Source: Candidatus Dormibacter sp. (GTDB lineage: Bacteria; Chloroflexota; Dormibacteria; Aeolococcales; Aeolococcaceae). From it: a stretch of 64,000 nucleotides of DNA. Location: NCBI GenBank assembly GCA_039935655.1, contig JBDTJX010000077.1, forward strand, positions 55,718-119,717, written 5' to 3'. Below the pieces are notes generated by a model, which did not search any database, was not told where the DNA came from, and worked only from the letters and a program-made list of their open reading frames with translations. Positions 42,154-63,384 of this stretch are shown one piece after another. The number at the start of each line of letters is the position of its first letter. Position 1 is the stretch's first letter. Position numbers and translations under genes: made by a program.

Positions 42154-43014
42154 CGGGAGGACGGCGGGGCCGGCGAACCGCGAGAGATCGGGCAGATCGC
42201 CTCGTCGCGGAGAGGCCAGCGACAGGAGCGTGTGAAACGGCGGAGACCACGCATCACGCACTGTCAAGGGCATCGACGACGGTGCGAAGATCTGCGAACC
42301 GTGCTGGGCACGCTGCTGTGGTCGCGCACGACGCTGTCGATGGTGCCGGCCGGGACGTACGGTGAGATGACCACTGCGGGCACGCGGGGTCCAAGCAACT
42401 GGAAGGTGAAGTGCGCCGCCCTGGGACGCAGAAACACATGACCGATGCGTGTTGGCCGGCCACCGCGTTGATCGCCCCGATCACCATCCGGCCGCCCGGG
42501 GAACGGCTCAGAGGGCGGATGTCGGCATTGCCGCTGGCGTTGCGCAGTCCGCGGCCAGGGCGCCGGCGCCGCGGACCATTACAGTGCGAGCGACGGCGTA
42601 AGCGGACGTCGACAGGCGATCATGAGCCAGGCGCGTGGGCGTCGACGCGACGCCAACCGCATTGAAGACACGCCGAGCGATGCCCTTGTGCAATTGCTCC
42701 GCCGGGGTGATGGCCAGCCTGTCGACTGGCGTCCGCCGCCATCTCTGTCAACGCGCTCATCTCGTTTGCCACAGGCGGACCTCTCCGGGCTGGGTGAGTT
42801 GTTCGCGAGTGTACTGCCGGCCCGGTCCGTGCGCTGGCATGACAATCCCGCAACAGCAACCCGACCTGCCCGTCTGGATAGCCCCCACGGGCGCAGGCTG
42901 TCGCGTGCGGGCAACCGATCAGCCGCGGGTCCGCCGTCGACGCCGGCTCCAGTCATCCCCGACCTAGCGGAGCGTTGCGAATTGTTGCCTAGCAACCGCC
43001 AGGAGCCGGATGCG

Positions 43015-44787
43015 ATGCCGCTCACCGAGAGCGACCGCACCTTCCACGCCTTCTTCGAGTGCAACCCGCAACCGATGTTCCTCCTCGACGTGCGTACCTT
43101 CCGCTACCTGGCCGTGAACAACGCCGCGCTCGACCTGTACGGCTACTCGCGCCGGGAGTTCCTGGCGCTGCGCCAGACCGACCTCCGCGTTGAGGACCAG
43201 GCAGCCCAGTTGCAGGACGACCGACTTGCAATCATTCACGGCACCAAGAAGCACTTCCAGGACACCCGCCATCGCACCAAGAGCGGTGCCATCCTCGATG
43301 TCGAGCTCGACCTCGCCAGCGTGTTCTTCGCCAATCGTGACTCCGTGGTCGTGGTCGTCAGCGATGTCACCGACCGGGTCAAGCTGCAGGGTGAGCTGCA
43401 ATACCAGGCGTTCCACGACGGGCTCACCGGCCTGCCCAACCGCGCGCTCTTCACCGACCGCGTCGACCATGCCCTGGCTCGCAGCCTGCGCGATGGCCGC
43501 CGGCTGGCCGTGCTCTTCCTCGACCTCGACAACTTCAAGGCAATCAATGACGGTCTCGGCCACCCGGCGGGGGACGAGCTGCTGAGGACGGTGGCGCGTC
43601 GGCTGGCCCAGCAGTTGCGTGCCGGGGACACCGCGGCACGCTTCGGCGGTGACGAGTTTGCCATCCTCCTCGAGAACCTCACTGAACCAAGCCAGGTGGC
43701 CCATGTCTGCGAGCGCATCGCGGCAGCGCTGCGCGTGGGCTGTCACATCCAGGGCACCCTGGTCTGCCCGCAGGTCAGCATCGGCGTGACCTACAACGCG
43801 GACGGCAGCTCGGCTGAAGAGCTGCTCCGCAACGCCGACGTCGCCATGTACCAGGCCAAGGCCAACGGCAAATCCTGCTTCCAGGTGTACGAACCGGCCA
43901 TGCACCAGCGTGTTGCCTGGCGTCTGCAGGTGGAGTCAGACTTGCGGCGGGCGCTCGAGAAAGGCAATCTGCGTCTGCTCTATCAGCCGGTTTTCGCGCT
44001 CCCCAGCCGGCGGATTGTCGGTGTCGAGGCGCTGGTCCGCTGGCTGCACCCTGTGCGCGGGCTGATCCTTCCGCTCGACTTCATCGTTGTCGCCGAGGAC
44101 ACCGGTCTCATCATCCCGCTGGGCCGCTGGGTGCTCACCGAGGCGTGCGCCCAGGCTCGACGCTGGCAGCAGGAGATCGCCGGGGCGGACGACCTCAATG
44201 TCGCCGTCAACATCTCGCCTCGTCAACTGGAGGACCCAGTGATCGTCGATGACGTCACGGCGGCCCTGGCCGCGTCAGGGCTGCGGCCCGAGAAGCTGGT
44301 CCTCGAGATCACCGAGAGCATCCTGATGCGCGACGTCGCGGCCGCAACCATGCGCCTGACGGACCTCAGCGACCTCGGCGTGAAGCTGGCTGTTGACGAC
44401 TTCGGCACCGGCCAGTCCTCACTGTCACAACTGCGGCGCTTCCCCGTGGACATTCTCAAGATCGACAAATCCTTCGTCGACAACATCGACCACGACCCGC
44501 TGGCGAGCAACCTCCTGACCGTCGTCGCCGCGTTGGGTGAGTCGCTCGGCCTCGACGTGGTCGCCGAGGGTGTCGAATCGGAGGCCCAGGGCCGTGTCAT
44601 CGAGCGTCTGGGCAAGCTCTTCGTCCAGGGATACCTGTATTCACGACCGCTGGACGTCGCGGCAATGACCGTTCTCCTCGCCGAGCACAGCTTGGTCCAA
44701 CCGCGGCGAGGTAACTCCTCACCCGTCGACCAGCAGTCCCTTCAGCGGCCCCTTGAGTCGCGCCGTCCGGCGCGAGATCGACGGTAG
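43015..44787 (+). CDS. PAS-GGDEF-EAL c-di-GMP signalling protein
   Basis: PAS (FFECNPQPMFLLD), GGDEF (RFGGDEF, so the active site is intact), and EAL (VGVEALVRW...DDFGTG...KIDKSFV). AGGAG lies 9 nt before ATG 43015. The upstream 131 codons of the ORF have low GC3 and are Arg-rich. Confidence 0.86.
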   Translation: MPLTESDRTFHAFFECNPQPMFLLDVRTFRYLAVNNAALDLYGYSRREFLALRQTDLRVEDQAAQLQDDRLAIIHGTKKHFQDTRHRTKSGAILDVELDLASVFFANRDSVVVVVSDVTDRVKLQGELQYQAFHDGLTGLPNRALFTDRVDHALARSLRDGRRLAVLFLDLDNFKAINDGLGHPAGDELLRTVARRLAQQLRAGDTAARFGGDEFAILLENLTEPSQVAHVCERIAAALRVGCHIQGTLVCPQVSIGVTYNADGSSAEELLRNADVAMYQAKANGKSCFQVYEPAMHQRVAWRLQVESDLRRALEKGNLRLLYQPVFALPSRRIVGVEALVRWLHPVRGLILPLDFIVVAEDTGLIIPLGRWVLTEACAQARRWQQEIAGADDLNVAVNISPRQLEDPVIVDDVTAALAASGLRPEKLVLEITESILMRDVAAATMRLTDLSDLGVKLAVDDFGTGQSSLSQLRRFPVDILKIDKSFVDNIDHDPLASNLLTVVAALGESLGLDVVAEGVESEAQGRVIERLGKLFVQGYLYSRPLDVAAMTVLLAEHSLVQPRRGNSSPVDQQSLQRPLESRRPARDRR

Positions 44788-46131
44788 AGGACGCAGCGGC
44801 CGCGTGTGTGGCGCCGACTCGTCCAGCGCCGGACGCCACAGGGTCTCGACCACCTCGATGGGATCGCGGCCCGCGCAGTCCTCGCCGAGGTGCTCGGTCC
44901 AGAGACGCTCGCGGACATTCGTGGCAACGGCCGCGTCGTCGGTGACCACGTTGACCTCGGTGTCGTTGAACAGCGAGTGCTCGTTGAGATTCGCGGACCC
45001 GACCGTGAGCCAGGTGTCGTCGACGACGCACACCTTGGCATGCACATACACCGGAGGCCGGTCGGGCCCAGGCGGCCCGATGGTGCCGGCGAGCAGGCGT
45101 CCGTGGTGGTCGGCATCCTTGAGCACCGCCAACTGACCGCGGGTGTCGTCGTTGCCGTTGTTGGGGCGCTGCGGAAGCACGAGGCACAGCCGGAAGTCGT
45201 CGGCCGGCGGCCGCCGCAGAATCTCGGCGAGCACCGCCACCACCTCAGTGCTCCACAGGAACTGGTTCTCGATGTAGATCAGCCGGCGAGCTGAGCGAAA
45301 CGCGCCGAGGTACGCTTCGAGCACGCTGAAATCGCCGCGTGGCAGGCCCTTGTACGTGTGCTCGGGCACGGTGCGCACCACCTGCACCCGACTGCTGCCG
45401 GAGGGCGCCGGCGTGGCCATGGCCGGCAGTCGCTCCGCGGTGGTGGCTTGCCAGCGGAGCGCGAAATGTGCCGCGACATCGGCAACCGCGGGGCCGGTGA
45501 TTCGCGAGAGAGCATCGTGCCAACCCAGGCCGTCCCCGGCGGGGTGAGGGGAGATGTCATAGCGGTCGCCGTCCCAGTCGGTGAGGTCGATGCCGCCGAC
45601 GAACGCCACCGTGCCGTCGACGATCACCAGCTTCTCGTGATGGCAGTGCATGGGCCGGTTGCGCTTGTCCAGCGCGCCCCGGATCCGCGTCCCTCGCACC
45701 AGCGTGCTCATCAGGCGTGATGCCTCGCCACGGGTCGGATGGATGACCGGCACCGGCGCTCCGGCCCACGCGAGGACGCGGACATCGACACGCTCGGCGG
45801 CGCGAGCCAGCAGGTCGCGCACGGTGACCAGCGCCGGTTCGCGCTCCATGGCGAAGTCGGGGTCGACCGTCCACCCGGCGACGTGGACGAAGGACTTGGC
45901 ACCGCGCACCGCCTCGACGATCGCCGGCATCGCCTCCGCACCGTCGATGTGCACGTCCACGTGGTTGCCCTCGCGGGGAGGCGGCGGACCGGACGCCCAG
46001 CCCCGGCTCCTGCCGTCGAACACGTGGCCGAACCCGACCCGCGCAAAGCGGCGGCGGTGATGAGCGCGACTGGCGGCCTCGACGGCCTCGCCGGCGCGCG
46101 CATCGAGGTCGCTGGCGAACCGACCGATCAC
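44719..46131 (-). CDS. Phospholipase D-like (two-HKD) protein, cardiolipin-synthase-like
   Basis: Two HKD motifs: HCHHEKLVIVDG and HAKVCVVDDTWLTVGSANLN. The start is uncertain: GTG (complement of 46129-46131) was chosen, and the AT-rich MELPLSQ... extension was rejected. The 3' end overlaps the convergent GGDEF-EAL gene by 69 nt. Confidence 0.72.
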   Translation of the reverse strand: MIGRFASDLDARAGEAVEAASRAHHRRRFARVGFGHVFDGRSRGWASGPPPPREGNHVDVHIDGAEAMPAIVEAVRGAKSFVHVAGWTVDPDFAMEREPALVTVRDLLARAAERVDVRVLAWAGAPVPVIHPTRGEASRLMSTLVRGTRIRGALDKRNRPMHCHHEKLVIVDGTVAFVGGIDLTDWDGDRYDISPHPAGDGLGWHDALSRITGPAVADVAAHFALRWQATTAERLPAMATPAPSGSSRVQVVRTVPEHTYKGLPRGDFSVLEAYLGAFRSARRLIYIENQFLWSTEVVAVLAEILRRPPADDFRLCLVLPQRPNNGNDDTRGQLAVLKDADHHGRLLAGTIGPPGPDRPPVYVHAKVCVVDDTWLTVGSANLNEHSLFNDTEVNVVTDDAAVATNVRERLWTEHLGEDCAGRDPIEVVETLWRPALDESAPHTRPLRPLPSISRRTARLKGPLKGLLVDG

Positions 46132-46278
46132 GCGGGCCAGTCTACGGGGCGGGACCGCCGCCCTCGCCTGGTTGGGGGCTTCCCTACCGTGGTGCGGTGT
46201 GCTAGTGTTGGTTATCGAGGAATACCTACTTTGTGATAGTGGTAGTTCCATGTATCAAACCGGAGCAAAGGAGTGTCA

Positions 46279-46482: not shown

Positions 46483-46845
46483 TCAGTCGCCGGTCGGGAC
46501 TACGCTTGCCCGCTCAACCATCAGCGCGACCGTCCGCTGCGGCGCTCGAGGCCGGTGGCGCACTCCCTGAGGCACGGTGAGCGCCTGACGCGCTCCCAGT
46601 TCCACGGTCCGACCCTCGAGGTCGATGAGCAGGGTGCCCTCCACGACGAAGAAGAACTCATCCTCATCGTCGTGCGTGTGCCAGTGGTACTCGCCCTCGA
46701 GCACACCCAGTCGCACAACCGCGTCGTTGACCGCACACAGCGTCTGGTTCCACCAGGGGTCCGTACACGCGTCGACGAGCGCCTGCACGTCGATCAGCTC
46801 CAGGGGTGCGAACTTGACGTCGAGATGCGTGCTGTACGTGGTCAT
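46483..46845 (-). CDS. Cupin domain protein
   Basis: 120 aa with a GEYHWHTHDDEDEFFFVVEG cupin motif-1 region and a P-G-V-H-R motif-2 region. Confidence 0.8.
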   Translation of the reverse strand: MTTYSTHLDVKFAPLELIDVQALVDACTDPWWNQTLCAVNDAVVRLGVLEGEYHWHTHDDEDEFFFVVEGTLLIDLEGRTVELGARQALTVPQGVRHRPRAPQRTVALMVERASVVPTGD

Positions 46846-46860: not shown

Positions 46861-47475
46861 CTAGTGTCCGATCGGGAAGGGTACGGGCACCGCCGCGCCA
46901 TCAGGCGGCACCGCGATGTCCACCTGGCGCCCGTCGCCATACGTCCGTCGCCAAGTCGACCCGTCGCGGATGTCGAGAACGTCGAGAGAGGTGAGTTCGC
47001 TGCTGCCGGCGTCGAACGTGCACTCAGCGATCAGCCGCAGAGAATCTGAGCGCAGGTTGCAGGTTGCGGTGTGCACGACGCCGTCCTTGGTCCAGGCGGC
47101 CGCGGCCCGCGCCGTGCCTTTGCCCGACTCGGAGAGTGTGTAGGAGGCGTCGCCACCATAAAGGACCGCACCGGCGGGACCCATTCGTCCGACGTCCGCC
47201 AACGTCATCGCGCCGATGTGCACGTGGTCGCCGCTGAGATACGCGCTCTGCGGCGAGGGTGCCACAAGCAGCACCCCTCCGGTGGCAGCGCACAGGCAAC
47301 CCACGATGGTCGCAACGGCCGGGCGATGCGCGCGGAGGATTCGTCGTCGCTGACGCCGCGCCACCCGCACCGGCGTGCTGCCGCTGCCGAGCGGTACGGG
47401 CAGCGCCTGGGCATCTCGATCGATCAACGAGCGCGCCGGTTGGCGCCGGTCGAGGCGACGGACGTGATCCGCCAT
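46861..47475 (-). CDS. Hypothetical membrane-anchored protein
   Basis: High-GC3 ORF with an internal TM (VATIVGCLCAATGGVLLVAP) and a soluble C-terminal domain. ATG MADHV start (complement of 47473-47475); an alternative start lies 21 nt upstream. Confidence 0.5.
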   Translation of the reverse strand: MADHVRRLDRRQPARSLIDRDAQALPVPLGSGSTPVRVARRQRRRILRAHRPAVATIVGCLCAATGGVLLVAPSPQSAYLSGDHVHIGAMTLADVGRMGPAGAVLYGGDASYTLSESGKGTARAAAAWTKDGVVHTATCNLRSDSLRLIAECTFDAGSSELTSLDVLDIRDGSTWRRTYGDGRQVDIAVPPDGAAVPVPFPIGH

Positions 47476-47480
47476 GGGGA

Positions 47481-47930
47481 TCAGCCGGCCGCGCACGCGA
47501 TCTCCAGGCGGTGCTCGATGACGCCGGTGATCGCCGGGTCGAACAACAGCAGCACCCGCACCCGGCGACGCAGCCGAGCAACGGTGCGGCCTTGCGGATC
47601 CACACGGACAGATTGGTCGTCGAACTCAACGACGGCGCGGACGGTCGCGCCGGCGTCGAGGACGTCTCCTTCGATGCGCACCTGCGCGTACTCTCCGAAG
47701 TCGGGCCGGGTGGTCAGGCCGGCGGCCAGCCCCGGCTGCATCGCCGTTCGAAGACGTGCTGCCTCGCCGGTGGCGACATAGCTCTCGATGTCTGCGTCCT
47801 GCCCGGATGCCAGCAGTCCGAGGTCGAAGACAAATCGGTCGACGAGACTCATGACCAGCGCGGTGCGCCGGTCACGGTCATCGTCGTCCATGCGCCGTCC
47901 CGAGGGCAGAAGCTGCCTGACGCTCCTCAC
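47481..47930 (-). CDS. Hypothetical acidic protein (149 aa)
   Basis: High-GC3 ORF. The start overlaps the stop of the ParA-like gene (ATGA-type), so it probably belongs to the same operon. Confidence 0.5.
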   Translation of the reverse strand: MRSVRQLLPSGRRMDDDDRDRRTALVMSLVDRFVFDLGLLASGQDADIESYVATGEAARLRTAMQPGLAAGLTTRPDFGEYAQVRIEGDVLDAGATVRAVVEFDDQSVRVDPQGRTVARLRRRVRVLLLFDPAITGVIEHRLEIACAAG

Positions 47931-48730
47931 CGCCGCACCCGACCGGGCAGTCGTGCCACTGCCTCTGTGAGGGCGCGATAGGCCACGCGCATCTTTGGCG
48001 ACACCGACTCCACCGGCACACCATCCATGCCTGCGAGCCGTACATTGTCGGCGTCGTCAGGGATCTCCAGGACACGGTCAACTCGCGAGGCGATCACGTC
48101 GAGGTACTCGCGGGTGACGGGGTGGCGGCGGTTGCGTCGCGCCCCAGAGGTGATGCATGGCACCACTGTCGGTGGCCGGCCGCGAACGTCGAGGTAGTCG
48201 AGCACACCGTTGAAGTCCTGGCGGCTCATCGCCGTGGGCAGAACCAGCGCGTCGGCTTCCTCGAGCCAGAACGCGGCCACCGCCGCCTCGGGACCTGACG
48301 TCGGATCGGGCAATCGATTGCTCATGTCGACGATGACCAACGAGTAGCGCGCCCGCAGGTGTGCGGCCAGGCGGCGGATGTCGGTATGGCTGTATTCGGT
48401 TCCGTCGCGCCGCTCCGGGTAGCAGGCCAGTGCGGGTGTGACCGAATGGATCGGCGCCGGCGGCTGAGCGCCCTTGGTGAGCGCTGCGACGACGTCGCGC
48501 ACGGAAGCGGCGTGTTCGGGCAGGTTGAGCTGGCCCCACGCGTCAGGATTGGCCACGTTGGCGTCGACGATTGCTGCGGTATGGCCCACTGAGTCGAGCA
48601 CGGTCCCGCCACTGATCGCCATCCCGGCGGCGTGACTGGTCTTGCCGACGCCACCCTTGCGCGAACCAACGACCACGATGCGGGGCGCACGATTGAGCAG
48701 GAGCGCGGCCAGTTCGGCGTCGTCAGCCCT
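47927..48730 (-). CDS. ParA/MinD-like P-loop ATPase domain (CpaE/TadZ-like); canonical start not identifiable
   Basis: Deviant Walker A VVVGSRKGGVGKT, Walker B LVIVDMS, and a MinD-like C-terminal half. There is no ATG/GTG/TTG between the P-loop and the stop of the upstream gene in this frame. The frame stays open to 49036, but that stretch is Arg/Pro-rich. Confidence 0.6.
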   Translation of the reverse strand, partial: RADDAELAALLLNRAPRIVVVGSRKGGVGKTSHAAGMAISGGTVLDSVGHTAAIVDANVANPDAWGQLNLPEHAASVRDVVAALTKGAQPPAPIHSVTPALACYPERRDGTEYSHTDIRRLAAHLRARYSLVIVDMSNRLPDPTSGPEAAVAAFWLEEADALVLPTAMSRQDFNGVLDYLDVRGRPPTVVPCITSGARRNRRHPVTREYLDVIASRVDRVLEIPDDADNVRLAGMDGVPVESVSPKMRVAYRALTEAVARLPGRVRR

Positions 48731-49553
48731 GGCGCCGCCGCCCCACGGCCGAAGCAGTGGCAGGCGTCGTCGCAGCCGCCCCGCCGCGGTGAGGTCGCTC
48801 GGCGGGGCTGAAGCTGGATGTGGCCGCTGAGCGACTCGACGACCAGGCCGGCGACACGCCTTCCGCGCGCTCACTCTCAGCGGCGAGAAGCTCCAGCGGA
48901 TCCGCCGGGGGCGAAGCTGCGGAGGCCGCGGTCGCCGGCGGTGAGGCCCCGCCGGCGACATCGAACAGCGGTGGAAGGCCCTGGTGGCTGTAGGGCCGCA
49001 CCGGTTCACGGTTCCCGGTCGGCTGGACATGGGCACCCGCCGAAGCCATTGACCTCGTACCCGCGGCGCCCGCTCGGACCCGCGCGATCATGCGCACATC
49101 GCGGACATCGAACACATCGGCTGCAGTCGCGCTCGCGGGGTTGGGCGCCGTCCCGTACCGGGTGACGACGGCCTCGGCGAGCGCCAGTGGCGCTCCGTCG
49201 GCGTCACGGCGAACGCCAACCGCCGGTGAATACCCGGCGGCGTCCGTGTCGCCAACGGCAACGAGGAAGACGCCGTCCAGTCCGAGCATCCATGCCGCAA
49301 GGCCTGTCTCGTGTTGAAGCAGAAAGACGGGAAGCGCGCCTGCGGGCACGTTGCCCCCCCACCAACGATCAAGCGCGGCCTGGCTGGCGCTCGCGGCGAA
49401 GAAGTCGAGGCCGCGAACACCCGGAACCAGGAAGACCGAGGCGGCAGATGCGCCCGGGCGCGCCAGACCCTCGAGTAGATCCGCCAGTCCGCGGGCCTCC
49501 GCATCGTCGCGAAGCAGCGAGATGAACGCGAACGAGTGCCGCTCAGCGGACAC
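48723..49553 (-). CDS. Hypothetical protein with an N-terminal pseudo-receiver-like region and an Ala/Ser/Pro-rich tail; possible upstream half of a frameshifted CpaE-like gene
   Basis: GTG start VSAERHSFAFISLL (complement of 49551-49553). The real part begins there, and the N-terminal 238 codons of the annotated 514-aa ORF are junk that overlaps tadC and a small membrane gene. Contains SVFLVPGVRGLDFF...VFLLQHETG...FLVAVGDTDAAG, resembling the pseudo-receiver that precedes the ATPase domain in CpaE proteins. Confidence 0.45.
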   Translation of the reverse strand: MSAERHSFAFISLLRDDAEARGLADLLEGLARPGASAASVFLVPGVRGLDFFAASASQAALDRWWGGNVPAGALPVFLLQHETGLAAWMLGLDGVFLVAVGDTDAAGYSPAVGVRRDADGAPLALAEAVVTRYGTAPNPASATAADVFDVRDVRMIARVRAGAAGTRSMASAGAHVQPTGNREPVRPYSHQGLPPLFDVAGGASPPATAASAASPPADPLELLAAESERAEGVSPAWSSSRSAATSSFSPAERPHRGGAAATTPATASAVGRRRQG

Positions 49554-49905
49554 GTTGCTCTGCCTGTTGTGCGGTGGTGGCGTTGGCGCAGCACACGCCG
49601 TAGCCGCTGTTGTGGTGCGCGACGCCCAGGCCGAGGAGGATCGTGCCTGCGAGGAGCGCCAGCGGCCCGCGGCGTACGGAGCGCCGTGCTCCACCCCGGC
49701 GTCGGAGCAGGCCGGCGGCGACCCCGCCGGCGGTCGCGGCCACCGCCAGCCAGCACACCAGCGCCACCAGCGCGAACACGGTGGCCTGCGTGACAGCCCG
49801 CCCGGTGAGGAGGTCAAAGCTGCGCGTGGTGTCTGCCCAGCCGAGCGCGAATGCGCCAAACAGGACCGCCGCTCCGGCCAACAACGCGAGGACGCCCGAG
49901 CGCAC
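49543..49905 (-). CDS. Small polytopic membrane protein (120 aa, 3 TM)
   Basis: MRSGVLALLAGAAVLFGAFALGW..., a second and third TM, then a short tail. Lies 4 nt after the tadC-like stop. High GC3. Confidence 0.5.
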   Translation of the reverse strand: MRSGVLALLAGAAVLFGAFALGWADTTRSFDLLTGRAVTQATVFALVALVCWLAVAATAGGVAAGLLRRRGGARRSVRRGPLALLAGTILLGLGVAHHNSGYGVCCANATTAQQAEQRVR

Positions 49906-49909
49906 CGCG

Positions 49910-50809
49910 TCAGCCTCCGCCGAGTCCGGTGGTCAGGCTCGCGAACGTCGGCGCACCCAGCAGCAGGAGCAGCGGGATCAGCATGCCTGCGACGGGCAGT
50001 GTCACAAGGATGCGTGCTCGCGCCGCCCGCATCCGCGCATCCGCGAGTCGGTGGTGGTACACGGCCTGTGCGACGCGCGTGTAGGTCAGACGCTCGCCGA
50101 TTCCAACGTTGGTTGTGGCGAGAGCGTCGGCGACCAGGGTGAAGGCGGGCACCCGGAACCGCTCTCCAATCGACCGGTAGAGCTCGGCGGTGCTGCGCGG
50201 CTGCGTGCTGATCAGGCGCCTCCAGCCACCCTCGACGAGGGTGCGCAGGTCTGGGGTGGTTGCGCACCGCGAGAGGATGCGCACCGCGTCATCGACCTGG
50301 AGGCCGCGTCCATCGGTCAGGATGGCGACAAGCATCATCATGTCGCCAAGAGTGCGATCGGCACGGTCGCGGCGCCGCTGCGCTGAAGCTCGCACCAGCG
50401 CAAACCTGATTAGCACAGCGGCGATTGCGAGTAGCACAGCGACCCCCGGTGGCGCTGCGAAGTCGCCGCTGCTCAACCGAAACGTCGTGTCAGCAACCAG
50501 GGTCACCGTGAAGGTGACCAGCGCCAGCACCGCTGTGCGCCCGACGAAGGCGGCGTCGCTCTCCGTGCGGTCGGCTTCGGCGAGCAGGCGGCGGAGGTCG
50601 AGCTCCTCGCGCGCGCGGCGCACGGCGGCACTGCGTTCGGCGGCCCGCTCGAGACGCGTGTGCGGGCGAGCGTAGCCACGAAGCGCGGCGAGCCGCTGCC
50701 ACGCACGGACGTCGGAGGAGGTGAGGTATCCGAGGCGACCGAGCAGAGCCGCCCACAGGCCCACCACGACGATGGCGGCGCTCGCGAACAGCCACAGACT
50801 ACTGGGCAC
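49910..50809 (-). CDS. Type II secretion system F family protein (TadC-like)
   Basis: N-terminal TM, cytoplasmic helical domain, C-terminal TM pair. GTG start overlaps the TadB-like 3' end by 11 nt. Confidence 0.68.
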   Translation of the reverse strand: MPSSLWLFASAAIVVVGLWAALLGRLGYLTSSDVRAWQRLAALRGYARPHTRLERAAERSAAVRRAREELDLRRLLAEADRTESDAAFVGRTAVLALVTFTVTLVADTTFRLSSGDFAAPPGVAVLLAIAAVLIRFALVRASAQRRRDRADRTLGDMMMLVAILTDGRGLQVDDAVRILSRCATTPDLRTLVEGGWRRLISTQPRSTAELYRSIGERFRVPAFTLVADALATTNVGIGERLTYTRVAQAVYHHRLADARMRAARARILVTLPVAGMLIPLLLLLGAPTFASLTTGLGGG

Positions 50810-51719
50810 CGAGGCGCTCCTGTTCCTCGGCGAGCCTGCCCAGGTCCCAGCGCGTCCAGTCGCGCACCTGCACGATCAGCCCGAGCAGGCTGACGAGCAA
50901 CGCGAACAGGATGACCACGCTCACCAGCACCACGTTGCCCGCGACGGACTGGTAAAACGCGCGGAACGTGTCCACGCGGATGACGATGACGAACATCACC
51001 ACCATCAGGACCGACATCGCAATCGTCACCGCGCGCTGCTGGGTGAGCGTGACTGCCGCCTCCTCCTGCACCGCGAGTTGCGCGCTGCCGACGGGAAGCA
51101 GCAGCTCGTCGATCGCCTCGATGAGTGCTTCGAGGCTGCGGCTGCGCGTCCACAGCAGCACCGCGCACGCGTACTCCACGACGGGGGAGCGCGCCCTCAA
51201 CCCCACCGCGACGATGTTGTCGAGGACCGAACCGCCGCGCGCCAGCGGCGCCAGGACGTACTCCAGTCCAGGTCCGGGGTCGCGCCCGATCTCCTGCAGC
51301 GCGGTGTCGAGCGATTGATTGGCCACGGCCATGCGATCGCGCACGTCGCGCAGCCTCCCCAGAAACGCGCGCTCCATGCGCAGGCGACGGTTTGCCGCGG
51401 TCCCCGCCAATGCGAAGCGGAACCCGAAGGCACCGAGCAACCCGCCGATCACCGCCAGGATCCAGATGCGTGACAGAAGCCCGAGCGCGATGCCGGCTGC
51501 GATCAGCGACAGGCGCACCCCGACCCAGCGGCGCCACGGCCAGCCGAGGTTGGCGGCGACGTCGCGCTCCCGCTCGAGCAGGCGCCAGCGCGGTCGCTGG
51601 CGGCCGAGGCGGCGCACGTCGAGGTCCAGGATCGCCGCCGTGCCGCCCGCGGCGCACGCGATCACCACGAGGAGGCCCGCCAGTTGCAGCGTCGTCCAGC
51701 CGACCGCAGAGAGGATCAC
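50799..51719 (-). CDS. Type II secretion system F family protein (TadB-like)
   Basis: Same architecture as the TadC-like gene. Start ATG overlaps the cpaF stop (ATGA). Confidence 0.68.
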   Translation of the reverse strand: MILSAVGWTTLQLAGLLVVIACAAGGTAAILDLDVRRLGRQRPRWRLLERERDVAANLGWPWRRWVGVRLSLIAAGIALGLLSRIWILAVIGGLLGAFGFRFALAGTAANRRLRMERAFLGRLRDVRDRMAVANQSLDTALQEIGRDPGPGLEYVLAPLARGGSVLDNIVAVGLRARSPVVEYACAVLLWTRSRSLEALIEAIDELLLPVGSAQLAVQEEAAVTLTQQRAVTIAMSVLMVVMFVIVIRVDTFRAFYQSVAGNVVLVSVVILFALLVSLLGLIVQVRDWTRWDLGRLAEEQERLGAQ

Positions 51720-53128
51720 GGCGACGGGATCTCGTCAGCCGGCAGGTGGCCTCGCAGGCGTGGCCCGAGTCGGTTGAGATTTCCGACCTGCTCGGTCATC
51801 CGCCGCCAGCCGCCGCTGTCCGTCTGTCGGTACACCCACTTGTGATTGCCGCCTCGTTCCACCGCCAGGACCCCCGTTAGCCGACGCCGGCCGTCCTGGT
51901 TGGCGAGGTGAATCACTAGCTGGATAGCGTGTTCCACGACCCGCTTGGCCATCTTCTCGTTGCCGGTGAAACGCCGGTTCTCCATCACGTATTGCACAGC
52001 CTGGTCGAGGGCCAGCTCGGCGTCTTCAGCATGGATGGTCGTCATCGATCCGTCGTGACCGGTCATCAGCGCCTTGCACACGGCGGCCATCTCTTCACCG
52101 CGCGACTCCCCCAGGATCAATCGGTCGGGTTGAAAGCGCAGCGCGTGCCGCACCAGGTCGAACATGGTGAGCTGTCCGGAGTCGGCCTCCGCCCTGATCG
52201 ACGGGATCGTCGACACCGCCGAGGTCAGCGCGTGCCACGGCTGTCCGTCGCCACGGTCCTGGTCGAGGTGCAGCTCAGCCCCGTCCTCCACGACGACGAG
52301 GTGCTCGCCAGCGGGCACCATGCCGCACAGCACGCGCATCAACGTCGTCTTCCCGGTGCTGGTGCCACCGGCGATCATCACGTTGACGCGTGAATCCACG
52401 CAGGCCTCGATGAATCGGGCAATGCCCTCGGGCATCACCGCGCTGTGAACGTAGTCTGCGAGGTCGCGGACCTTCGAGCGGGCCGGGATACGGATGGCCG
52501 CCACCAGCGCTGCCTGCCCCGAGACGGCCGGGCGTTTGGCGACGCAGACGCGGATCACGCTGCCAACGTTGGCCTCCGCGATCGGGGCTGCATCAGTGAT
52601 GCTGTGGTCCCCGGTGACGCCACGCAGTCGCACCACGCGGCGAAAGAACTCGAGGCAGTCCTCGTCACCGGTGAACGGGCTGCCGCCGATCAGCGTGAGC
52701 TTGCGGCCCACGACGCTCACCAGCCAGCGGTCATAACCCAGACAGGTGATGTTTTCGAGATCGGCCCCGTAGACGAGCAGCGACAACGGAAAGAGGTGTG
52801 AGGCCAGGATCGCAGCGTTCCGGCGGGCGACGGCGCGATAGCCGGGGTTGCTGCCCAGCTCGCTGACCACCGCCAGCGGCAGCCCGCTCGTCGACGGCGA
52901 CGCGATGGCGCGCTCCACAACCCGAGCCACGTCGTCGTGCAGGCGCTCCTCGTGGTGCACCGACGCCGGCTCAACGCCGCGGTCGCCGATGACCCTGTCG
53001 GCGATTGCCTGCGCCACCTCACGCTCTTCGGCCGCGATCTGCGGCCACCTGGCGACGCGAACCTCCGTCGACCGCGTCGGAGTGAGTGGATCCAAGCCCA
53101 CACCGCCGACGTCGACCCGCACTGCCAT
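51716..53128 (-). CDS. CpaF/TadA family secretion ATPase (VirB11-like)
   Basis: Walker A VMIAGGTSTGKTT, Asp box, Walker B RLILGESRGEE, His box GHDGSMTTIHA. ATG (complement of 53126-53128) shares one base with the upstream stop (TGATG). The N-terminal 35 codons of the annotated ORF are rejected. Confidence 0.88.
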   Translation of the reverse strand: MAVRVDVGGVGLDPLTPTRSTEVRVARWPQIAAEEREVAQAIADRVIGDRGVEPASVHHEERLHDDVARVVERAIASPSTSGLPLAVVSELGSNPGYRAVARRNAAILASHLFPLSLLVYGADLENITCLGYDRWLVSVVGRKLTLIGGSPFTGDEDCLEFFRRVVRLRGVTGDHSITDAAPIAEANVGSVIRVCVAKRPAVSGQAALVAAIRIPARSKVRDLADYVHSAVMPEGIARFIEACVDSRVNVMIAGGTSTGKTTLMRVLCGMVPAGEHLVVVEDGAELHLDQDRGDGQPWHALTSAVSTIPSIRAEADSGQLTMFDLVRHALRFQPDRLILGESRGEEMAAVCKALMTGHDGSMTTIHAEDAELALDQAVQYVMENRRFTGNEKMAKRVVEHAIQLVIHLANQDGRRRLTGVLAVERGGNHKWVYRQTDSGGWRRMTEQVGNLNRLGPRLRGHLPADEIPSP

Positions 53129-53850
53129 CACGCAAGCACAGGCACGAGACTGAGGTCGTCGTTGACGCCGACGAGCGTGGTCGGCGTGCCAGTCTCGCCC
53201 ATCCTGGTGGCGCGAGCCTCGTCCCAATGCCACACCTCGCGAATTGCCAGCCCCGGAACGTTGCGCTCGAGCGTCTCGACAACGAGGCGGCGGTAGGCAC
53301 GGCTGCGCTGGTTGCAGATGATCAGCTCGCCATGCGGTGGTCGCGCCGCCTGGAGCACGCTGATGCTCCTCGACAGCAACGCAGGGTCATCCCGGATGAC
53401 CACGAAGGCGCGCGAGAAGACCGAGCAGATCGCCTCGGCCGCCGACCGTGGTGAGCGCAGGCCGGGATGAGAGAGCGGATGCCCGAGGTCAGCGACCACC
53501 ACGTCGTCGCGCATGCCTGCCAGGGCTGAGGCCAGCTTGGCCAGGCATTCGACGATCTCGTACCCGTAGCTGCGCGACAGCCCGGGCACGATGCGGAGCT
53601 GCTCGCGCTTAGGGTGGCCGATGGCTTGCGCATCGAGCTGCAACGCCGTCGCTGGTCGATCGCCGAAACAGTTGGCGATAGAACGGTCGTCTGTGCGCAG
53701 CAGCAGGAGGTCGGCGAGAGTTCCGCCTTCCATGTCGCAATCAACGAGCAGCACGCGATGCTGCTCCGCGAGCGTCCACGCGAGGCACGCCGCCCAATGT
53801 GTGGACGTCTGACCCGCGCGCGTCGTGTAAACGGCGATCAGGGTGCTCAT
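53128..53850 (-). CDS. Ssd/TadZ-like degenerate ParA-family protein (septum-site-determining-like)
   Basis: MinD/ParA fold with the Walker A position degenerate (AVYTTRAGQTSTHW instead of KGGxGKT) and a DCDMEGG Walker-B-like segment. ATG at 53850 overlaps the cpaB-like stop (ATGA). Confidence 0.6.
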   Translation of the reverse strand: MSTLIAVYTTRAGQTSTHWAACLAWTLAEQHRVLLVDCDMEGGTLADLLLLRTDDRSIANCFGDRPATALQLDAQAIGHPKREQLRIVPGLSRSYGYEIVECLAKLASALAGMRDDVVVADLGHPLSHPGLRSPRSAAEAICSVFSRAFVVIRDDPALLSRSISVLQAARPPHGELIICNQRSRAYRRLVVETLERNVPGLAIREVWHWDEARATRMGETGTPTTLVGVNDDLSLVPVLA

Positions 53851-54482
53851 GGCGGGGGCGATCCACCCACGCCGCCGGCACAGGCCGACCCACAGAGCCT
53901 GCTGATCGCATCGTTCGGCGCCAGTGGCTGGAGGGACGACGGATCCTGCTGCGCCGAGCGCACGGCATGAAGCGCGATGCTCGATGACCCCACCGATATC
54001 CACGCCTCCTCCTGGTCGGCGGGCACCAGCACGGTCAGCGCTCCACCCGACACGGTGAGCACGGTGACCCCCTGGCCGATGCGAGCCTGCCTGCCTCCCC
54101 CGATCGTCGCGAACACATCGACGCGGTCCCCCGCCGACAGGGGCGGCGGAGCCTGCAGTGTCAGCGCGATCTCCACCTGCGCACCGGCATCGATGAGGTC
54201 GTCGTCGCGGAGGATGTCGTTGGGGTGCAGGCTCAGCGTATAACGCGCGGCATATTGGGCGGGGGAGCGGTGCTCGTACTGGAAGTCACCCTCCTGGGCG
54301 CGGACGGTGACAGTGGAGATGTCGTCGGCGACGTAGGGGCTGCCGGCCAGCACGGCGTGCTTGAGGATGTACACGCTGATCGTCTGCTGGTTACCGGATT
54401 GCTGGAGGTAGACCATCACGCCGAGGACAAGGACGATCACGCTGCTGAAGAACGCGGCCGCGGTCAGGCGACGCCGATCCAT
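53847..54482 (-). CDS. CpaB/RcpC-like SAF-domain pilus/secretion assembly protein
   Basis: N-terminal TM (AAAFFSSVIVLVLGVMVYL), then a SAF-like beta-rich domain. GAGGGA Shine-Dalgarno before ATG 54482; an in-frame TTG lies 3 nt upstream. Confidence 0.6.
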   Translation of the reverse strand: MDRRRLTAAAFFSSVIVLVLGVMVYLQQSGNQQTISVYILKHAVLAGSPYVADDISTVTVRAQEGDFQYEHRSPAQYAARYTLSLHPNDILRDDDLIDAGAQVEIALTLQAPPPLSAGDRVDVFATIGGGRQARIGQGVTVLTVSGGALTVLVPADQEEAWISVGSSSIALHAVRSAQQDPSSLQPLAPNDAISRLCGSACAGGVGGSPPP

Positions 54483-54572
54483 CAATCATTTCCCTCACCC
54501 GTCAACCCCCGGCCAGACCGCACACTTGCCGGGCGGACAAGGTAGGTCCGCAGACGGGCATCGTCAAGGGTG

Positions 54573-55277
54573 TCATCCGGCGCCGAGATAGCCGGCCGGC
54601 GTCGGCTGCAGCCGGCCCGTCAGATGCAACTCGCCATCCGACCCGTACGGCGGATGCCAGAACAGCGCCACCACCTCGACACGGCGGACCGAGGCCGGGC
54701 GCCGCACGGTGGCCGTCAGCATCCGTCGCGCTGCGCGTCGCTGCAAAAGGGGCCGCCGCAGCCTCACTCCGACACCTCCGAGGCTGGCGGCGATCCGCGC
54801 CACCTCGGTTCCGACCGACGTGCCTGCTGCGAAGACGCCGAGCGACAGGGCGAACCCCATGTCGGGCAGCGCTCGCAGGCTGAGCGCGATGCCGGTCAGG
54901 GTGTCTGCCGGGGGACTGGCCAGGGCGAGATAAGTTCCTCGCAGAGGATCGCTTCGCTGCCAGCCGAAGGTGCGGCTCTCCAGTGCCAGGTGACGGTTGG
55001 TCGGCACAAGGTTGACAGCGGCGACCTCGACGGCCATGTCGACCATCTCGGGCACCATCCAGCCCGCTTCGACGGCACCCCCGCATTGGTCGGCGATGAG
55101 TGAGGCCGCGGCCGCCTCGACGCCGATATGCGGGGACTGCACGCCGAGCATCACCCGGTCGCCGAGGCCGAACAGGAAGAGGCCAAGCCCGCGGCCCGCG
55201 GTGAGCTGCCAGAGGTCGGCGAGCAATCGCTCGGAGTCAGCCGGGGTCGGCACCGGGCACGCTTCGACGAGCTGCAT
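54573..55277 (-). CDS. Hypothetical cytoplasmic protein (234 aa)
   Basis: Very high GC3 and no TM helix. Sits between the GT-C-like gene and the cpaB-like gene on the same strand. Confidence 0.5.
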   Translation of the reverse strand: MQLVEACPVPTPADSERLLADLWQLTAGRGLGLFLFGLGDRVMLGVQSPHIGVEAAAASLIADQCGGAVEAGWMVPEMVDMAVEVAAVNLVPTNRHLALESRTFGWQRSDPLRGTYLALASPPADTLTGIALSLRALPDMGFALSLGVFAAGTSVGTEVARIAASLGGVGVRLRRPLLQRRAARRMLTATVRRPASVRRVEVVALFWHPPYGSDGELHLTGRLQPTPAGYLGAG

Positions 55278-55340: not shown

Positions 55341-58250
55341 CTACGGGATCAGGTGGATAGCCCCGATGTCCTCCGCCACGGTCATGGTCAGCTCCAGGGG
55401 CTCCGACCCATACGCCGGCCACTGGCTGCAGGCGCCGATCGGGAACCGGTAGGCCGTGGGCCCTGTGGGCATTGTCTTGAAGGAGATGGTGCGGTGCTCG
55501 CCGGGTGGCGAGGGACGGTCGTCGATGATCACCAGGCTGCTGGTGAAGCGCGCGGCGGCGTCGAGCTCGATCCATGAGTAGTCGTCCCAGCGATGGCCGG
55601 AGGGCAGCGTCAGCCGCAGCGATGCCGGCCCAGTGCGGGTTATCCCCACTGAGATCGGCGACGCCCCCGTCGGAGGTGGCGGCGGCTTCACCGATAGGAA
55701 GTTCGGCGCGTCGCCCCAGTCGCAGCCGAAACCGACGAAGGGCAGGTCGGTGGTGATCAGAGGGGTCGACAGCGGCAGGTGCAGAGACCTCGGGTCCGGC
55801 ACGTTGGCGGTGTCGAGCACGTAGATCGTCTGGCCGTGCACGTCGGCGAACGGGCGGTAATGGCTGAGGATGTACTGGCTGATGTCGTAGTGCCGCACCA
55901 TGGTGGGGATGTAGTCCCACCCGGGGATGCCCAGCTGGGTCTGGTTGTAGAGCACAAACAGCGGGTGATCGGCCTGCAACTGTGCGATCAGGTCCCGCTG
56001 GATGACCTGGCGCATGGCGATCGACACCTGGTAGTACGCCGTGCCGGGGCGGAAGTCCATGAGGTAGTAGAGGAATGCCGGCTCGTCGGTGAAGTCGAAC
56101 ACGTGGCCACCCGCGGGCAGGTAGGCGTGCAGGAAGGTGCTGACGTCGTTGAGCAGATTGATGTCCAGCGCAGTCGGCGTCGCGTACCCCAGCGCTGCGA
56201 TGCGCGGCTCGCTGCTCACCGTGGTGCGATAGCCCGCCGGCGCCGCCTTCACCGCCGGACTGATCGCAAACGGGAACAACCACACCAACACTGCGAAGAG
56301 TGCTGCAACCCCGAGCCCGCTACTCAGCCCCCGCACGCGCGCGAACAGCCGTACCAGGAGGGGACCGCCGACATCGGCGATCTCGCCGATAAGGATGATC
56401 AGCAGCGGCACGCACGTCGCGAAAGTCTCGTTGACATGAAGGTCGGCGCGGTCGAGGAATTTCGGGTAGTAGAGGAACTCCAGGATCGCCGCCGCGATCA
56501 GCATCCAGTCGAGAGTGGTCAGCCGGACCCGCAGCCAGAGCTTGGTCACCACCAGGAAGAAGCCGGCAAGCATCGCGACGACGGGCACGACGACCTCCAT
56601 CAGGTACTGCCCGGTCAGCGGCTGGTGCGGCAGTCCGCCGGTGAGGATGTGATCGGGGGCGAAGGCCGTGTAGTACTTGACGAAGTCGTCCAGGGCATGC
56701 TGGCTGAGCAGGATGACCAGAAGCACGGCTGCGACGGTGACTCCGCCCACCGCTGTCCACAGGGTTGTCGTGAACGCCGGGAGCCGGAGGTTGGCGCGCC
56801 GGCCGCCGGTGGCGTAGAGGTCGCGCGCGAGCACGGCGAATCCAACCGCGGCGATGCAGTACGCGGTCTCCGGGGTGATCACCGCCTCGATGGCCAGCGC
56901 CGCCCCCAGCGCGATGGCGAGCCACCGCCCGCGGCTCTCGAGAACGAACCACAACAGCACGAGAACCAGTGGCCAGGTGACGAAGCGCCAGAAGATGACT
57001 GCGTTGCCGAGGTCAGCGTGCAGCAGCAGGACCCCGAGAACGGGAACCAGCAGCAGCCACCCCTTGCCGACGACCCGGTATGCGAGGAAGTAGAAGCTGA
57101 GCAGACAGAGCGGCACCACCCAGAGCGTGTACCCGGATGCCGCTCCCCAATAGCTGTCCTGGATCGACGTGCTGGTCAGCAGCGGCTGGAACGCATCCTC
57201 GAGGATGCCGTGCGTGCTGATCCAGCCGCTCCATGGAAAGAGGCCTGACTGGACCAGCCGCAGCGTGGTCTGGCTCTGGCCGACCTCGAAAGCGTCGAAG
57301 TCGCCGAGTTGGCCGAACACAAACGCGAGTGCGACGAAGAGGAAGACCGGTACAGCCACCAGGAAGACGAGGCGCTGTTCGACACGCACGACTGCGGCCG
57401 CCTCACGGCCGGCACGCCGCAACGCCACCGCCGCAACGAGGACTGCCGCGACCAGAAGCACGACCCCGAGCGAGGTCGGCAGCCAGGCGTAGTGGTGCAC
57501 GGTGTGGTCGCTCAGCACCGTGACCTGGGTCGCCTGCGACGCGGCGATCAGCGCCGATAGGGTCAGGCATGCGCCGAACCCGTTGAAGCGACCCTGGTGC
57601 CTGCGCAGGGCATCCCAGCCATCCTGTTTTCGGTTGCTGCTCGCCAGCGCCGCCGACATGAGCACGACGACGAGCGTGTAGACGGCGGCGACGACGAGGA
57701 CAGTGCGCCACACGTTGGACGCAGGGGTGTTGCGCGCGATGGTCGCACCGAAGCCGAGGACGCCACCGACCAGCGCGATTCTCGCCCATGATGCGAGCAC
57801 AGCCATTGCGTCAACCGGCGTCGTTCCCGTCTCACCTCGGGCCGTCGCGGGGGTATCCACCGAGCTCCTCCGAGAGCGGTCAGCGAACGCGGGGAGGGGC
57901 ACATGTAGCCGCGCAAACACCCACAGCCCGAGAAGGCAGATGACCACGGTCGTCGCCGGGAAGACCACCACCGCCAGCTCGTACTGGGTGATGTACACAT
58001 AGGGGTTGAACGCCTGGAAGATGGGATAGCCGATGACGTCGGTGGCCACGTGGAGCGTCCTGTCGATGTGATGATCGAGGGTCCTGGCGCCGAACGCGGC
58101 GATGGCCACGGCAACCCCGATGAGCACGGCGAGCGGCAGCCCGCGCCCAAGCGCCGTCGCCCAGACGCGCAACCGCGGCGCTGGCAATCGCGGCCCCGGT
58201 TGAGCCTGACGTGAGTTCACACGAGTACCCGCGTGGATCGATTTCGGCAT
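55341..58250 (-). CDS. Large polytopic membrane protein, putative GT-C-type (polyprenyl-phosphate-sugar-dependent) glycosyltransferase
   Basis: 969 aa with about 20 TM helices across the first 650 aa, then a 300-aa C-terminal extracytoplasmic domain. This architecture is reminiscent of actinobacterial arabinosyl/mannosyl GT-C enzymes. Divergent from the GT2/heptose operon. Confidence 0.6.
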   Translation of the reverse strand: MPKSIHAGTRVNSRQAQPGPRLPAPRLRVWATALGRGLPLAVLIGVAVAIAAFGARTLDHHIDRTLHVATDVIGYPIFQAFNPYVYITQYELAVVVFPATTVVICLLGLWVFARLHVPLPAFADRSRRSSVDTPATARGETGTTPVDAMAVLASWARIALVGGVLGFGATIARNTPASNVWRTVLVVAAVYTLVVVLMSAALASSNRKQDGWDALRRHQGRFNGFGACLTLSALIAASQATQVTVLSDHTVHHYAWLPTSLGVVLLVAAVLVAAVALRRAGREAAAVVRVEQRLVFLVAVPVFLFVALAFVFGQLGDFDAFEVGQSQTTLRLVQSGLFPWSGWISTHGILEDAFQPLLTSTSIQDSYWGAASGYTLWVVPLCLLSFYFLAYRVVGKGWLLLVPVLGVLLLHADLGNAVIFWRFVTWPLVLVLLWFVLESRGRWLAIALGAALAIEAVITPETAYCIAAVGFAVLARDLYATGGRRANLRLPAFTTTLWTAVGGVTVAAVLLVILLSQHALDDFVKYYTAFAPDHILTGGLPHQPLTGQYLMEVVVPVVAMLAGFFLVVTKLWLRVRLTTLDWMLIAAAILEFLYYPKFLDRADLHVNETFATCVPLLIILIGEIADVGGPLLVRLFARVRGLSSGLGVAALFAVLVWLFPFAISPAVKAAPAGYRTTVSSEPRIAALGYATPTALDINLLNDVSTFLHAYLPAGGHVFDFTDEPAFLYYLMDFRPGTAYYQVSIAMRQVIQRDLIAQLQADHPLFVLYNQTQLGIPGWDYIPTMVRHYDISQYILSHYRPFADVHGQTIYVLDTANVPDPRSLHLPLSTPLITTDLPFVGFGCDWGDAPNFLSVKPPPPPTGASPISVGITRTGPASLRLTLPSGHRWDDYSWIELDAAARFTSSLVIIDDRPSPPGEHRTISFKTMPTGPTAYRFPIGACSQWPAYGSEPLELTMTVAEDIGAIHLIP

Positions 58251-58497
58251 GAAAGGGGGCGCGCCGCCCCAAGCAGGGCCACGGCGGTCCGCGCGCCGCC
58301 CTTTCGAGCGACATCCGTCCGTTGGCCGCTACAGTATTACCATTCCTCCGGCCACGGGTGGACCCCCGCAACGCCCCCCATCGCCCGGATCACCTGAGGG
58401 AGACTCGTCTTTGCCCGGATCGCCTCCAATCACCTCGGCTCTCGACGACATCGATGTGATCCACGTGTCGGGCGCTGACACCGGAGAGCGGACCGAG

Positions 58498-63380: not shown

Positions 63381-63384
63381 CACC

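Follow-up and report, generated by a model that had tools for sequence, protein, structure and literature searches.

A stretch of 64,000 nucleotides from Candidatus Dormibacter sp. (contig JBDTJX010000077.1; hereafter the window) carries nine tightly packed minus-strand genes, g1 to g9, which gene calling places at 46861-54485 and whose core is, with high confidence, a deeply divergent motor of the Tad type, the type IVc filament family. We find that these nine genes are inherited as one unit throughout the Dormibacterota and in remote relatives, and that they are recurrently embedded in genes of a type IV secretion system (T4SS). Because this embedding fits the chimeric machines of PAPI-1, R64, and pRAW, we favour, at a probability of about 0.55 on the sequence evidence, a role in T4SS-linked cell-to-cell transfer, with the locus as the putative Tad-like half of a composite Tad-T4SS apparatus. 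The partner of VirB4/VirD4 is a type IV pilus in PAPI-1 and R64 and a type VII secretion system (T7SS) in pRAW (PMC12857230). Literature searches that combined Tad with VirB4/VirD4, or Dormibacterota with pili or T4SSs, yielded no account of the present system, and we found no paper on surface machines or gene transfer in Dormibacterota.

Gene content of the Tad-like locus

Genes in the window, whose G+C content is 65-71%, were called with a gene caller based on codon-position G+C and codon usage. Adjoining genes overlap by 1-16 nt at every junction from g1 to g9, the sole exception being a 4-nt gap between g5 and g6, which makes a single operon plausible, and with gaps of at most 4 bp inside this operon and at most 87 bp at its flanks, there is no room for a hidden gene. 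By gene calls and junctions alike, the gene content, order, strand, and coordinates given in an initial annotation of the window are correct, and the one operon that it had proposed is a plausible reading. The order of g1 to g5 is that of CpaB-TadZ-CpaF-TadB-TadC in the canonical actinobacterial Tad arrangement of the Arthrobacter plasmid pYA7-1b (flp-cpaB-tadZ-cpaF-tadB-tadC-tadE), and the parts held in common with monoderm Tad systems are a CpaF-type ATPase and a MinD/ParA ATPase of the TadZ/CpaE type, together with two putative single-domain platform proteins of the T2SSF family and a candidate SAF-domain protein resembling CpaB.

The CpaF/TadA-type secretion ATPase g3 (51716-53128, minus strand; 470 aa) is the only protein of the locus recognised directly by standard hidden Markov models (HMMs), passing PF00437 at E = 1.3e-26 and 93.6 bits (cutoff 24.9). 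All of its catalytic motifs are intact, i.e., the Walker A sequence GGTSTGKTT, the Asp box, the Walker B sequence DRLILGESRG, and the His box GHDGSMTTIHA, and the nearest solved structure is that of Caulobacter CpaF (8rkd, 2e-27), followed by VirB11 (7e-18) and FlaI. Like VirB11, g3 stands beside VirB4, VirB6, and VirD4 in relatives, and it scores about equally against VirB11 and TadA-type models; unlike VirB11, it is nearest to CpaF, has a longer, CpaF-like N-terminal region, and is followed by GspF-like platform proteins that are absent from VirB11 systems. It falls below the cutoffs of the VirB11 model TIGR02788 (134 bits against 249.95), of TIGR03819 (129.8 bits against 373.15), and of the TrbB model. 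Identity among the g3 proteins of about 70 Dormibacterota genomes is 66-94%, with a ratio of nonsynonymous to synonymous substitution rates (dN/dS) of 0.06-0.10, and a tblastn search of plasmids returned no close relative, only CpaF-family proteins at less than 34% identity.

The two platform proteins and g1 are considerably more divergent. The TadB-like g4 (50799-51719, minus strand; 306 aa) has a helical cytoplasmic domain of the GspF/PilC/SpoIIIAB type between transmembrane segments, and its predicted model matches the SpoIIIAB/PilC/EpsF/TcpE fold; the window protein gives no match to PF00482 (T2SSF), and a g4 profile finds just 85 representatives among 1.84 billion proteins, one distant relative of g4, P0441, passing PF00482 and so linking g4 transitively to T2SSF. 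The g4 protein of the window is 100% identical to ABI352_09175, a hypothetical protein of a Candidatus Dormibacter sp. metagenome-assembled genome. The TadC-like g5 (49910-50809, minus strand; 299 aa) has a divergent T2SSF domain at residues 169-285 that aligns over positions 12-123 of the 125 in PF00482, at E = 0.29 and 11.6 bits (cutoff 25.2), while 30 of 40 orthologues match this family (best, 1.5e-4), and its hhalign alignment with actinobacterial TadC is colinear but weak. The bitopic g1 (53847-54485, minus strand) consists of an N-terminal transmembrane helix and a SAF-like domain, and resembles CpaB/RcpC. The window protein stays below the cutoffs of RcpC (E = 0.057, 13.8 bits against 28.8) and CpaB (TIGR03177; E = 0.007, 15.7 bits against 71), while among 40 orthologues 14 match SAF and three match RcpC; an hhalign comparison with the CpaB of the Arthrobacter plasmid is weak (E = 4.9e-4, 32% probability, 128 columns). 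The CpaB-like, TadB-like, and TadC-like labels of the initial annotation are recovered only through weak matches of orthologues, profile comparison, a distant relative, or a fold model, and not by direct matches of the window proteins themselves. Profile searches of g1, g4, and g5 against sequences of the Protein Data Bank (PDB) gave nothing useful, nor did those of g8 and g9.

Two genes encode proteins of the ParA/MinD fold. The first, g2 (53128-53850, minus strand), occupies the canonical TadZ position; its Walker A motif, invariant across the family, reads TTRAGQTST, and since both lysines are lost, g2 is probably a pseudo-ATPase. Direct HMM matches are weak and generic (P-loop/ParA-class AAA_31 and CbiA, E of about 0.02-0.03), and the g2 profile retrieves nothing from the PDB but structures of the SIMIBI/ParA class (VpsO at 3e-4, then FleN, Soj, and MinD), in agreement with the ParA-fold protein with a degenerate Walker A motif that had been described at this position. 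The second, g7 (47927-49553, minus strand), is CpaE/TadZ-like and comprises an N-domain, a low-complexity linker, and a MinD/ParA ATPase domain, whose deviant Walker A motif, KGGVGKTS, is intact and invariant across the family. ParA/MinD models match g7 directly over the Walker A region only, at 7e-4 to 1e-5, the PDB matches are MinD and FleN, and the C-terminal domain of the family aligns with the actinobacterial ATPase in the TadZ position (hhalign, 91% probability, E = 1e-6). An hhalign comparison of the N-domain with a CheY-like receiver revealed no similarity; of the second CpaE-like gene as first annotated, the 'pseudo-receiver' label is thus unconfirmed, the intact-Walker-A ParA domain stands, and the gene itself is present in the window as two open reading frames (ORFs). 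Between the g2 and g7 families, as between those of g4 and g5, hhalign detects no paralogy, at a divergence too great for this to count against the folds.

The split of g7 is a +1 frameshift in the low-complexity linker, where DNA alignment shows the window to have a single base more near 48826-48830 than two orthologous loci (L065 and L005); it leaves an N-part at 48723-49553, with a stop at 48723, and a ParA ORF at 47927-49036. In 57 of 63 orthologous loci g7 is a single ORF of about 480-540 aa, and the other split copies come from six metagenome-assembled genomes (MAGs) with MFD names (L010, L015, L026, L066, L067, and L068), which we take, from their naming alone, to be long-read assemblies. 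Frameshifts are typical errors in such assemblies. Relative to L065, dN/dS is 0.28 for the N-part and 0.13 for the ParA part, and because both halves have low values and the other splits fall in MFD MAGs, the frameshift is likely an assembly error or a very recent mutation.

The remaining genes are specific to this system. g6 (49543-49905, minus strand; 120 aa) encodes a membrane protein with three transmembrane segments and a conserved C-terminal VCCA...AEQ motif, is found in 51 Dormibacterota loci and in the remote relative L077, and evolves fast, with a dN/dS of 0.38-0.47. The soluble g8 (47481-47930, minus strand; 149 aa) is conserved in 46 loci and in L077, at a dN/dS of 0.15-0.16. The bitopic g9 (46861-47496, minus strand; 211 aa) has a conserved cytoplasmic N-terminal motif, DRxPQxLPVPLGG, followed by a basic stretch, one transmembrane helix, and a β-rich ectodomain with two invariant cysteines and the C-terminus PFPLG. 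None of the three matches a Pfam or NCBIfam model, and g8 and g9 are also without a PDB-profile match. A further conserved protein of 234 aa, up1 (54573-55277, minus strand), is encoded 87 bp ahead of g1, and the operon may begin with its gene; up1 precedes g1 in 20 loci by tblastn (14 by gene-family clustering), all of them in the window's clade, evolves at a dN/dS of 0.07-0.11, and gives no Pfam or NCBIfam match.

Association with type IV secretion genes

The locus was compared with 72 Dormibacterota loci, each taken with 10-kb flanks, and with four remote relatives (L077-L080) reached via distant g4 homologues. The order g1 to g9 is kept in about 70 Dormibacterota genomes, with g8 missing in one clade. 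Most genes have dN/dS values of 0.06-0.16, and the envelope proteins g6 and g9 have values of 0.34-0.47, so that all genes are under purifying selection.

Flanking genes were clustered into families and then scanned, and 37 of the 45 Dormibacterota loci with full flanks hold at least one T4SS gene. The set is of the monoderm type, i.e., VirB4, a VirB6-like protein, an M23 hydrolase, a VirD4 coupling protein (T4CP), and sometimes SSB, and it adjoins the module in three arrangements. The coupling protein, which is of the VirD4/TraG type (PF02534 at 1.7e-48, CD1115-type at 1.4e-36), was found by tblastn no more than 10 kb from the module in 35 loci, gene-family clustering giving 31, and it immediately follows g9 in the near relatives L005 and L065, and likewise in L002, L014, and L017. 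In a second clade of 27 loci, a 92-aa hydrophobic protein, a VirB6/TrbL-like protein, VirB4 (TraC at 2.7e-29, VirB4 at 1e-25), and an M23 peptidase are encoded directly upstream of g1. In a third clade, a class E sortase, SSB, an M23 peptidase, a VirB6-like protein, and an 89-aa protein are encoded downstream, and the VirB6-like protein aligns with that of the second clade (hhalign, 72%). The ATPases of lineages that share the T4SS association are as little as 36% identical. Pairwise distances among g3 proteins track those among T4CP, VirB4, and VirB6 proteins (r = 0.91-0.97) just as closely as they track those among g4 and g7, which argues that the Tad-like and T4SS gene sets share one history.

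Two other families always accompany the coupling protein, F61 (113 aa; window's clade) and F8 (330-520 aa, with a low-complexity middle and of no known family; 41-43 loci), and the T4CP-F61-F8 group stays together even far from the Tad-like module (L005, 8740-12018; L065, 9561-11676; L076 and L082, 10001-13404).

All four remote relatives have T4SS genes beside the module. In L077 each of the nine genes has a homologue, 25-39% identical and in unchanged order; genes for a small protein, a VirB6-like protein, and VirB4 come next on the downstream side, and a tyrosine integrase gene marks the cluster edge. L080 follows an L077-like layout up to the contig end, which cuts the cluster before the position of VirB4; L079 has VirB4 upstream and L078 the coupling protein downstream. 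These neighbours argue that the combination is old and recurrent, and give it, in some lineages, the look of cargo borne on an integrative conjugative element (ICE). In L077 (200-1312) and L080 (1-1010), the integrase at the cluster edge is accompanied by a small helix-turn-helix protein, which suggests an ICE; no tRNA gene was found beside either integrase or anywhere in the window. A divergent gene pair, F19 (about 440 aa) and F20 (about 210-270 aa; a weak Response_reg match for the L077 copy only), accompanies the module in one Dormibacterota clade, where it lies upstream of g1 (L044, L048, L049, and L053), and in remote relatives (L077, 14126-16139; L080, 15584-17720); this pair may encode regulators of the module.

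The edge integrases, the g7 frameshift, and the T4SS genes missing from the window would also suit a decaying remnant of an integrated conjugative element, non-functional in this genome. We consider this very improbable, given purifying selection on all genes, both g7 halves included, an order conserved phylum-wide in stable chromosomal contexts, and the occurrence of the six other split g7 copies in MFD MAGs, assumed to be long-read, where frameshifts are typical assembly errors.

The nearest parallels to a transfer role are PAPI-1 of Pseudomonas aeruginosa and the thin pilus of IncI R64, in which, as in the relatives described here, a filament-family machine lies beside VirB4 and VirD4; in addition, integrases border two of the remote relatives, as they would an ICE. 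PAPI-1 and R64 encode type IVb pili of diderm Proteobacteria on mobile elements, whereas the present system is of the Tad type and belongs to a Terrabacteria lineage, the Dormibacterota, its genes are chromosomally fixed and vertically inherited across the phylum, no relaxase was recognised, and the coupling is one that we infer.

In the mechanism that we propose for a transfer role, g3 would act as a CpaF-like hexameric ATPase that drives a platform of the single-domain, GspF-like g4 and g5, while the bitopic g1 (SAF/CpaB-like) and g9 would reach into the wall. The predicted active MinD/ParA-type ATPase g7 and the lysine-less, ParA-fold g2 may place or gate assembly, with g6 and g8 as candidate system-specific accessories. 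The Tad-like motor would work with the T4SS by extending a short putative (pseudo)pilus for cell contact or wall opening, and this (pseudo)pilus would serve VirB4/VirD4-driven transfer of DNA or protein, in parallel to the type IV pili that PAPI-1 and R64 require. In the window's lineage, the T4SS genes would have moved elsewhere, and filament subunits and a peptidase, if any, would not be encoded nearby. More tentatively, the system could represent an undescribed class of monoderm transfer apparatus, carried by Dormibacterota and some relatives, in which a Tad-type motor comprising the ATPase, two GspF-like and two ParA-fold proteins, and wall-spanning proteins of its own is integral and co-evolves with VirB4/VirB6/VirD4, domesticated from an ICE, chromosomally fixed phylum-wide, and possibly used for DNA exchange without a classical pilin.

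Filament subunits and competing readings

Neither the A24 peptidase motif (GxGDxK) nor an Flp (G/xxxxEY) or TadE-type N-terminus occurs in any coding frame of the window, and Pfam scans, which took in the locus proteins plus ten further ORFs of the window that are small or encode membrane proteins, returned no match to Flp, TadE, or A24 (PF01478). The absence of Flp, TadE/TadF, and TadV from the window, as first reported from its sequence, is borne out by both scans, and no canonical Flp pilin with TadV was found in or next to the locus. The 72 orthologous loci are likewise negative: a motif scan of the loci and their 10-kb flanks recovered its controls (TadE-like genes in L077, an Flp-like gene in L075, an actinobacterial locus) and turned up neither a pilin or pseudopilin nor an A24 peptidase at any of the 72.

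This last result weighs against a role in T4SS-linked transfer, as do several other observations. Scans of the 64-kb window reveal that VirB4, the VirB6-like protein, M23, T4CP, and F8 are all missing from it, and eight of the 45 full-flank loci have no T4SS gene beside the module, six of these (L001, L006, L010, L011, L013, and L068) belonging to the window's own subclade. The T4CP-F61-F8 trio lies beside CBS and citrate synthase genes at a distance of 190 kb in the genome of L001, and beside the same genes on another contig in that of L004, the closest relative with the window's upstream context. A coupling protein from a Candidatus Dormibacter MAG, P0242, could not be assigned to a contig. 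L005 and L065 carry the trio immediately after g9, which suggests that the window's lineage recently acquired a breakpoint separating g9 from T4CP. The neighbours scanned at these loci included no recognisable relaxase, g7 is frameshifted in the window, and the assignments of g1, g4, and g5 come from sub-threshold or fold-level evidence; more generally, two gene sets can be neighbours and be inherited together without being coupled physically or functionally.

The non-adjacency of T4SS genes in the window's subclade speaks for a conventional Tad/Flp pilus that acts on its own in adhesion or surface motility, with Flp, the pseudopilins, and TadV encoded elsewhere and the T4SS genes as mere neighbours. 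This is the main rival to a transfer role, unlikely in our judgement and still to be taken seriously: the core parts correspond in kind and order to those of canonical monoderm Tad loci, known Tad systems often encode their prepilin peptidase at an unlinked site, and three TadE/TadF/TadG-like pseudopilin genes lie directly upstream of g1 in each of L077, L079, and L080, the N-termini of two of the L077 proteins reading GQATVEF... and AQSLVETALVLPLLL.... We read these same genes, present in three of the four remote relatives, as favouring a transfer-linked machine that builds a filament or pseudopilus. A stand-alone pilus is harder to reconcile with 72 loci devoid of a pilin-like gene within 10 kb where the L077 and L075 controls were detected, and with a T4SS association in three arrangements among ATPases at 36% identity, for which chance is hard to credit. 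Nor are g6, g8, g9, and the extra ParA-fold protein g2 parts of known Tad pili. Relative to monoderm Tad systems, moreover, the locus lacks Flp, TadE/F, and TadV in or near it; every part except the ATPase is below family thresholds; the TadZ position is held by the lysine-less g2, with the true TadZ homologue, g7, lying after tadC; g6, g8, g9, and up1 are extra, system-specific genes; and most relatives have the module set among T4SS genes.

The subunits seen in those three remote relatives are exclusively of the minor-pilin type, TadE/F/G, with no Flp major pilin, as might suit a pseudopilus or secretion motor resembling a type II secretion system (T2SS), which would export folded proteins or wall material independently of DNA transfer. 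An ATPase with a GspF-like platform is the engine common to T2SSs and type IV pili (T4P). We regard this reading as improbable: no candidate substrate is conserved beside the locus, and the conserved neighbours VirB4, VirB6, VirD4, and SSB point instead to nucleic-acid or T4SS-type transfer.

The initial annotation had proposed that the locus works in membrane or septum organisation, as for mycobacterial Ssd, with the ParA-fold proteins and ATPase acting without a filament. The two ParA/MinD-fold proteins and the lack of a pilin or peptidase in the window speak for such a role. The mycobacterial Rv3654c-Rv3660c locus (Ssd, TadA, TadB, TadC, Flp, and TadE-like) likewise combines a ParA-fold protein, a TadA-type ATPase, and two platform proteins. 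That locus belongs to the actinobacterial 'helicase/secretion neighbourhood' family (TIGR03815-03819), for which a link to DNA transfer is itself suspected, NCBI naming TIGR03819 'conjugal transfer-associated'. In contrast to it, the present locus has no Flp/DUF4244 or TadE-like gene and includes a second ParA-type gene and other accessories; TIGR03815 gives no match at E ≤ 0.1 to either g2 or g7, and g3 falls far below the TIGR03819 cutoff. No division genes lie nearby, the conserved neighbours are those of a T4SS, remote relatives carry pseudopilins, and ParA-type TadZ/CpaE proteins are normal parts of Tad pili. The neighbourhood data thus weakly refute the septum proposal, which we regard as the most improbable of the readings considered, whereas the Tad-like ATPase and platform locus with two ParA-fold proteins that the same annotation described is supported.

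Neighbouring genes and significance

Downstream of g9, the site held by the coupling protein in near relatives is filled in the window by a cupin gene (46483-46845), a PLD-family gene (44719-46251, minus strand), and a GGDEF-EAL gene (42985-44787, plus strand), the latter two converging with a 69-bp overlap at their 3′ ends. On the other side, 55341-63999 encodes a 969-aa polytopic membrane protein without a Pfam family, followed by an apparent heptose-type glycosylation set, read from the translations as GT2, SIS (GmhA-like), epimerase, HAD/transaldolase-like, methyltransferase, and GHMP-kinase proteins. Glycosylation genes adjoin the Tad-like locus only in L004 and partly in L065, the closest relatives; their proximity is probably a coincidence. 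The canonical Tad locus of Arthrobacter sp. YA7-1 (plasmid pYA7-1b, 11997-24461), which lies on a conjugative plasmid, has GT2/GtrA and GT39 genes between its pilus assembly genes and tadG, a hint of pilin glycosylation in that system; the idea was dropped for the window, whose GT2 and 969-aa proteins are not specific homologues of the plasmid's GT2/GtrA and GT39. Elsewhere in the window, 25544-26404 (plus strand) encodes an ice-binding-like protein (Pfam Ice_binding, 2.8e-50), secreted or anchored, whose C-terminus forms a hydrophobic anchor, and 15219-15926 (minus strand) a 235-aa protein that consists almost wholly of Lys/Arg/Ala/Thr repeats (…TARKATAKRA…) and resembles basic repeat proteins of the histone-like or AlgP-like kind.

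Dormibacterota are abundant soil bacteria, and to our knowledge none has been cultivated. The window holds only the Tad-like half of the proposed apparatus, and the interest of the system lies mainly in phylum-wide fixation, extreme divergence, and four system-specific proteins. Four or five genes are without a counterpart in known Tad systems, i.e., g6, g8, g9, the lysine-less g2, and, in one clade, up1. With just the ATPase recognisable by standard HMMs, systems of this kind are invisible to TXSScan-style searches, a warning for annotation. The nine conserved genes offer a handle on how monoderm T4SSs without VirB2 pili make cell contact, and if the link to T4SS is true, the Dormibacterota system would be a third kind of hybrid beside the T4SS-T4P and T4SS-T7SS chimeras, the first on the Tad branch and the first to be chromosomally fixed.

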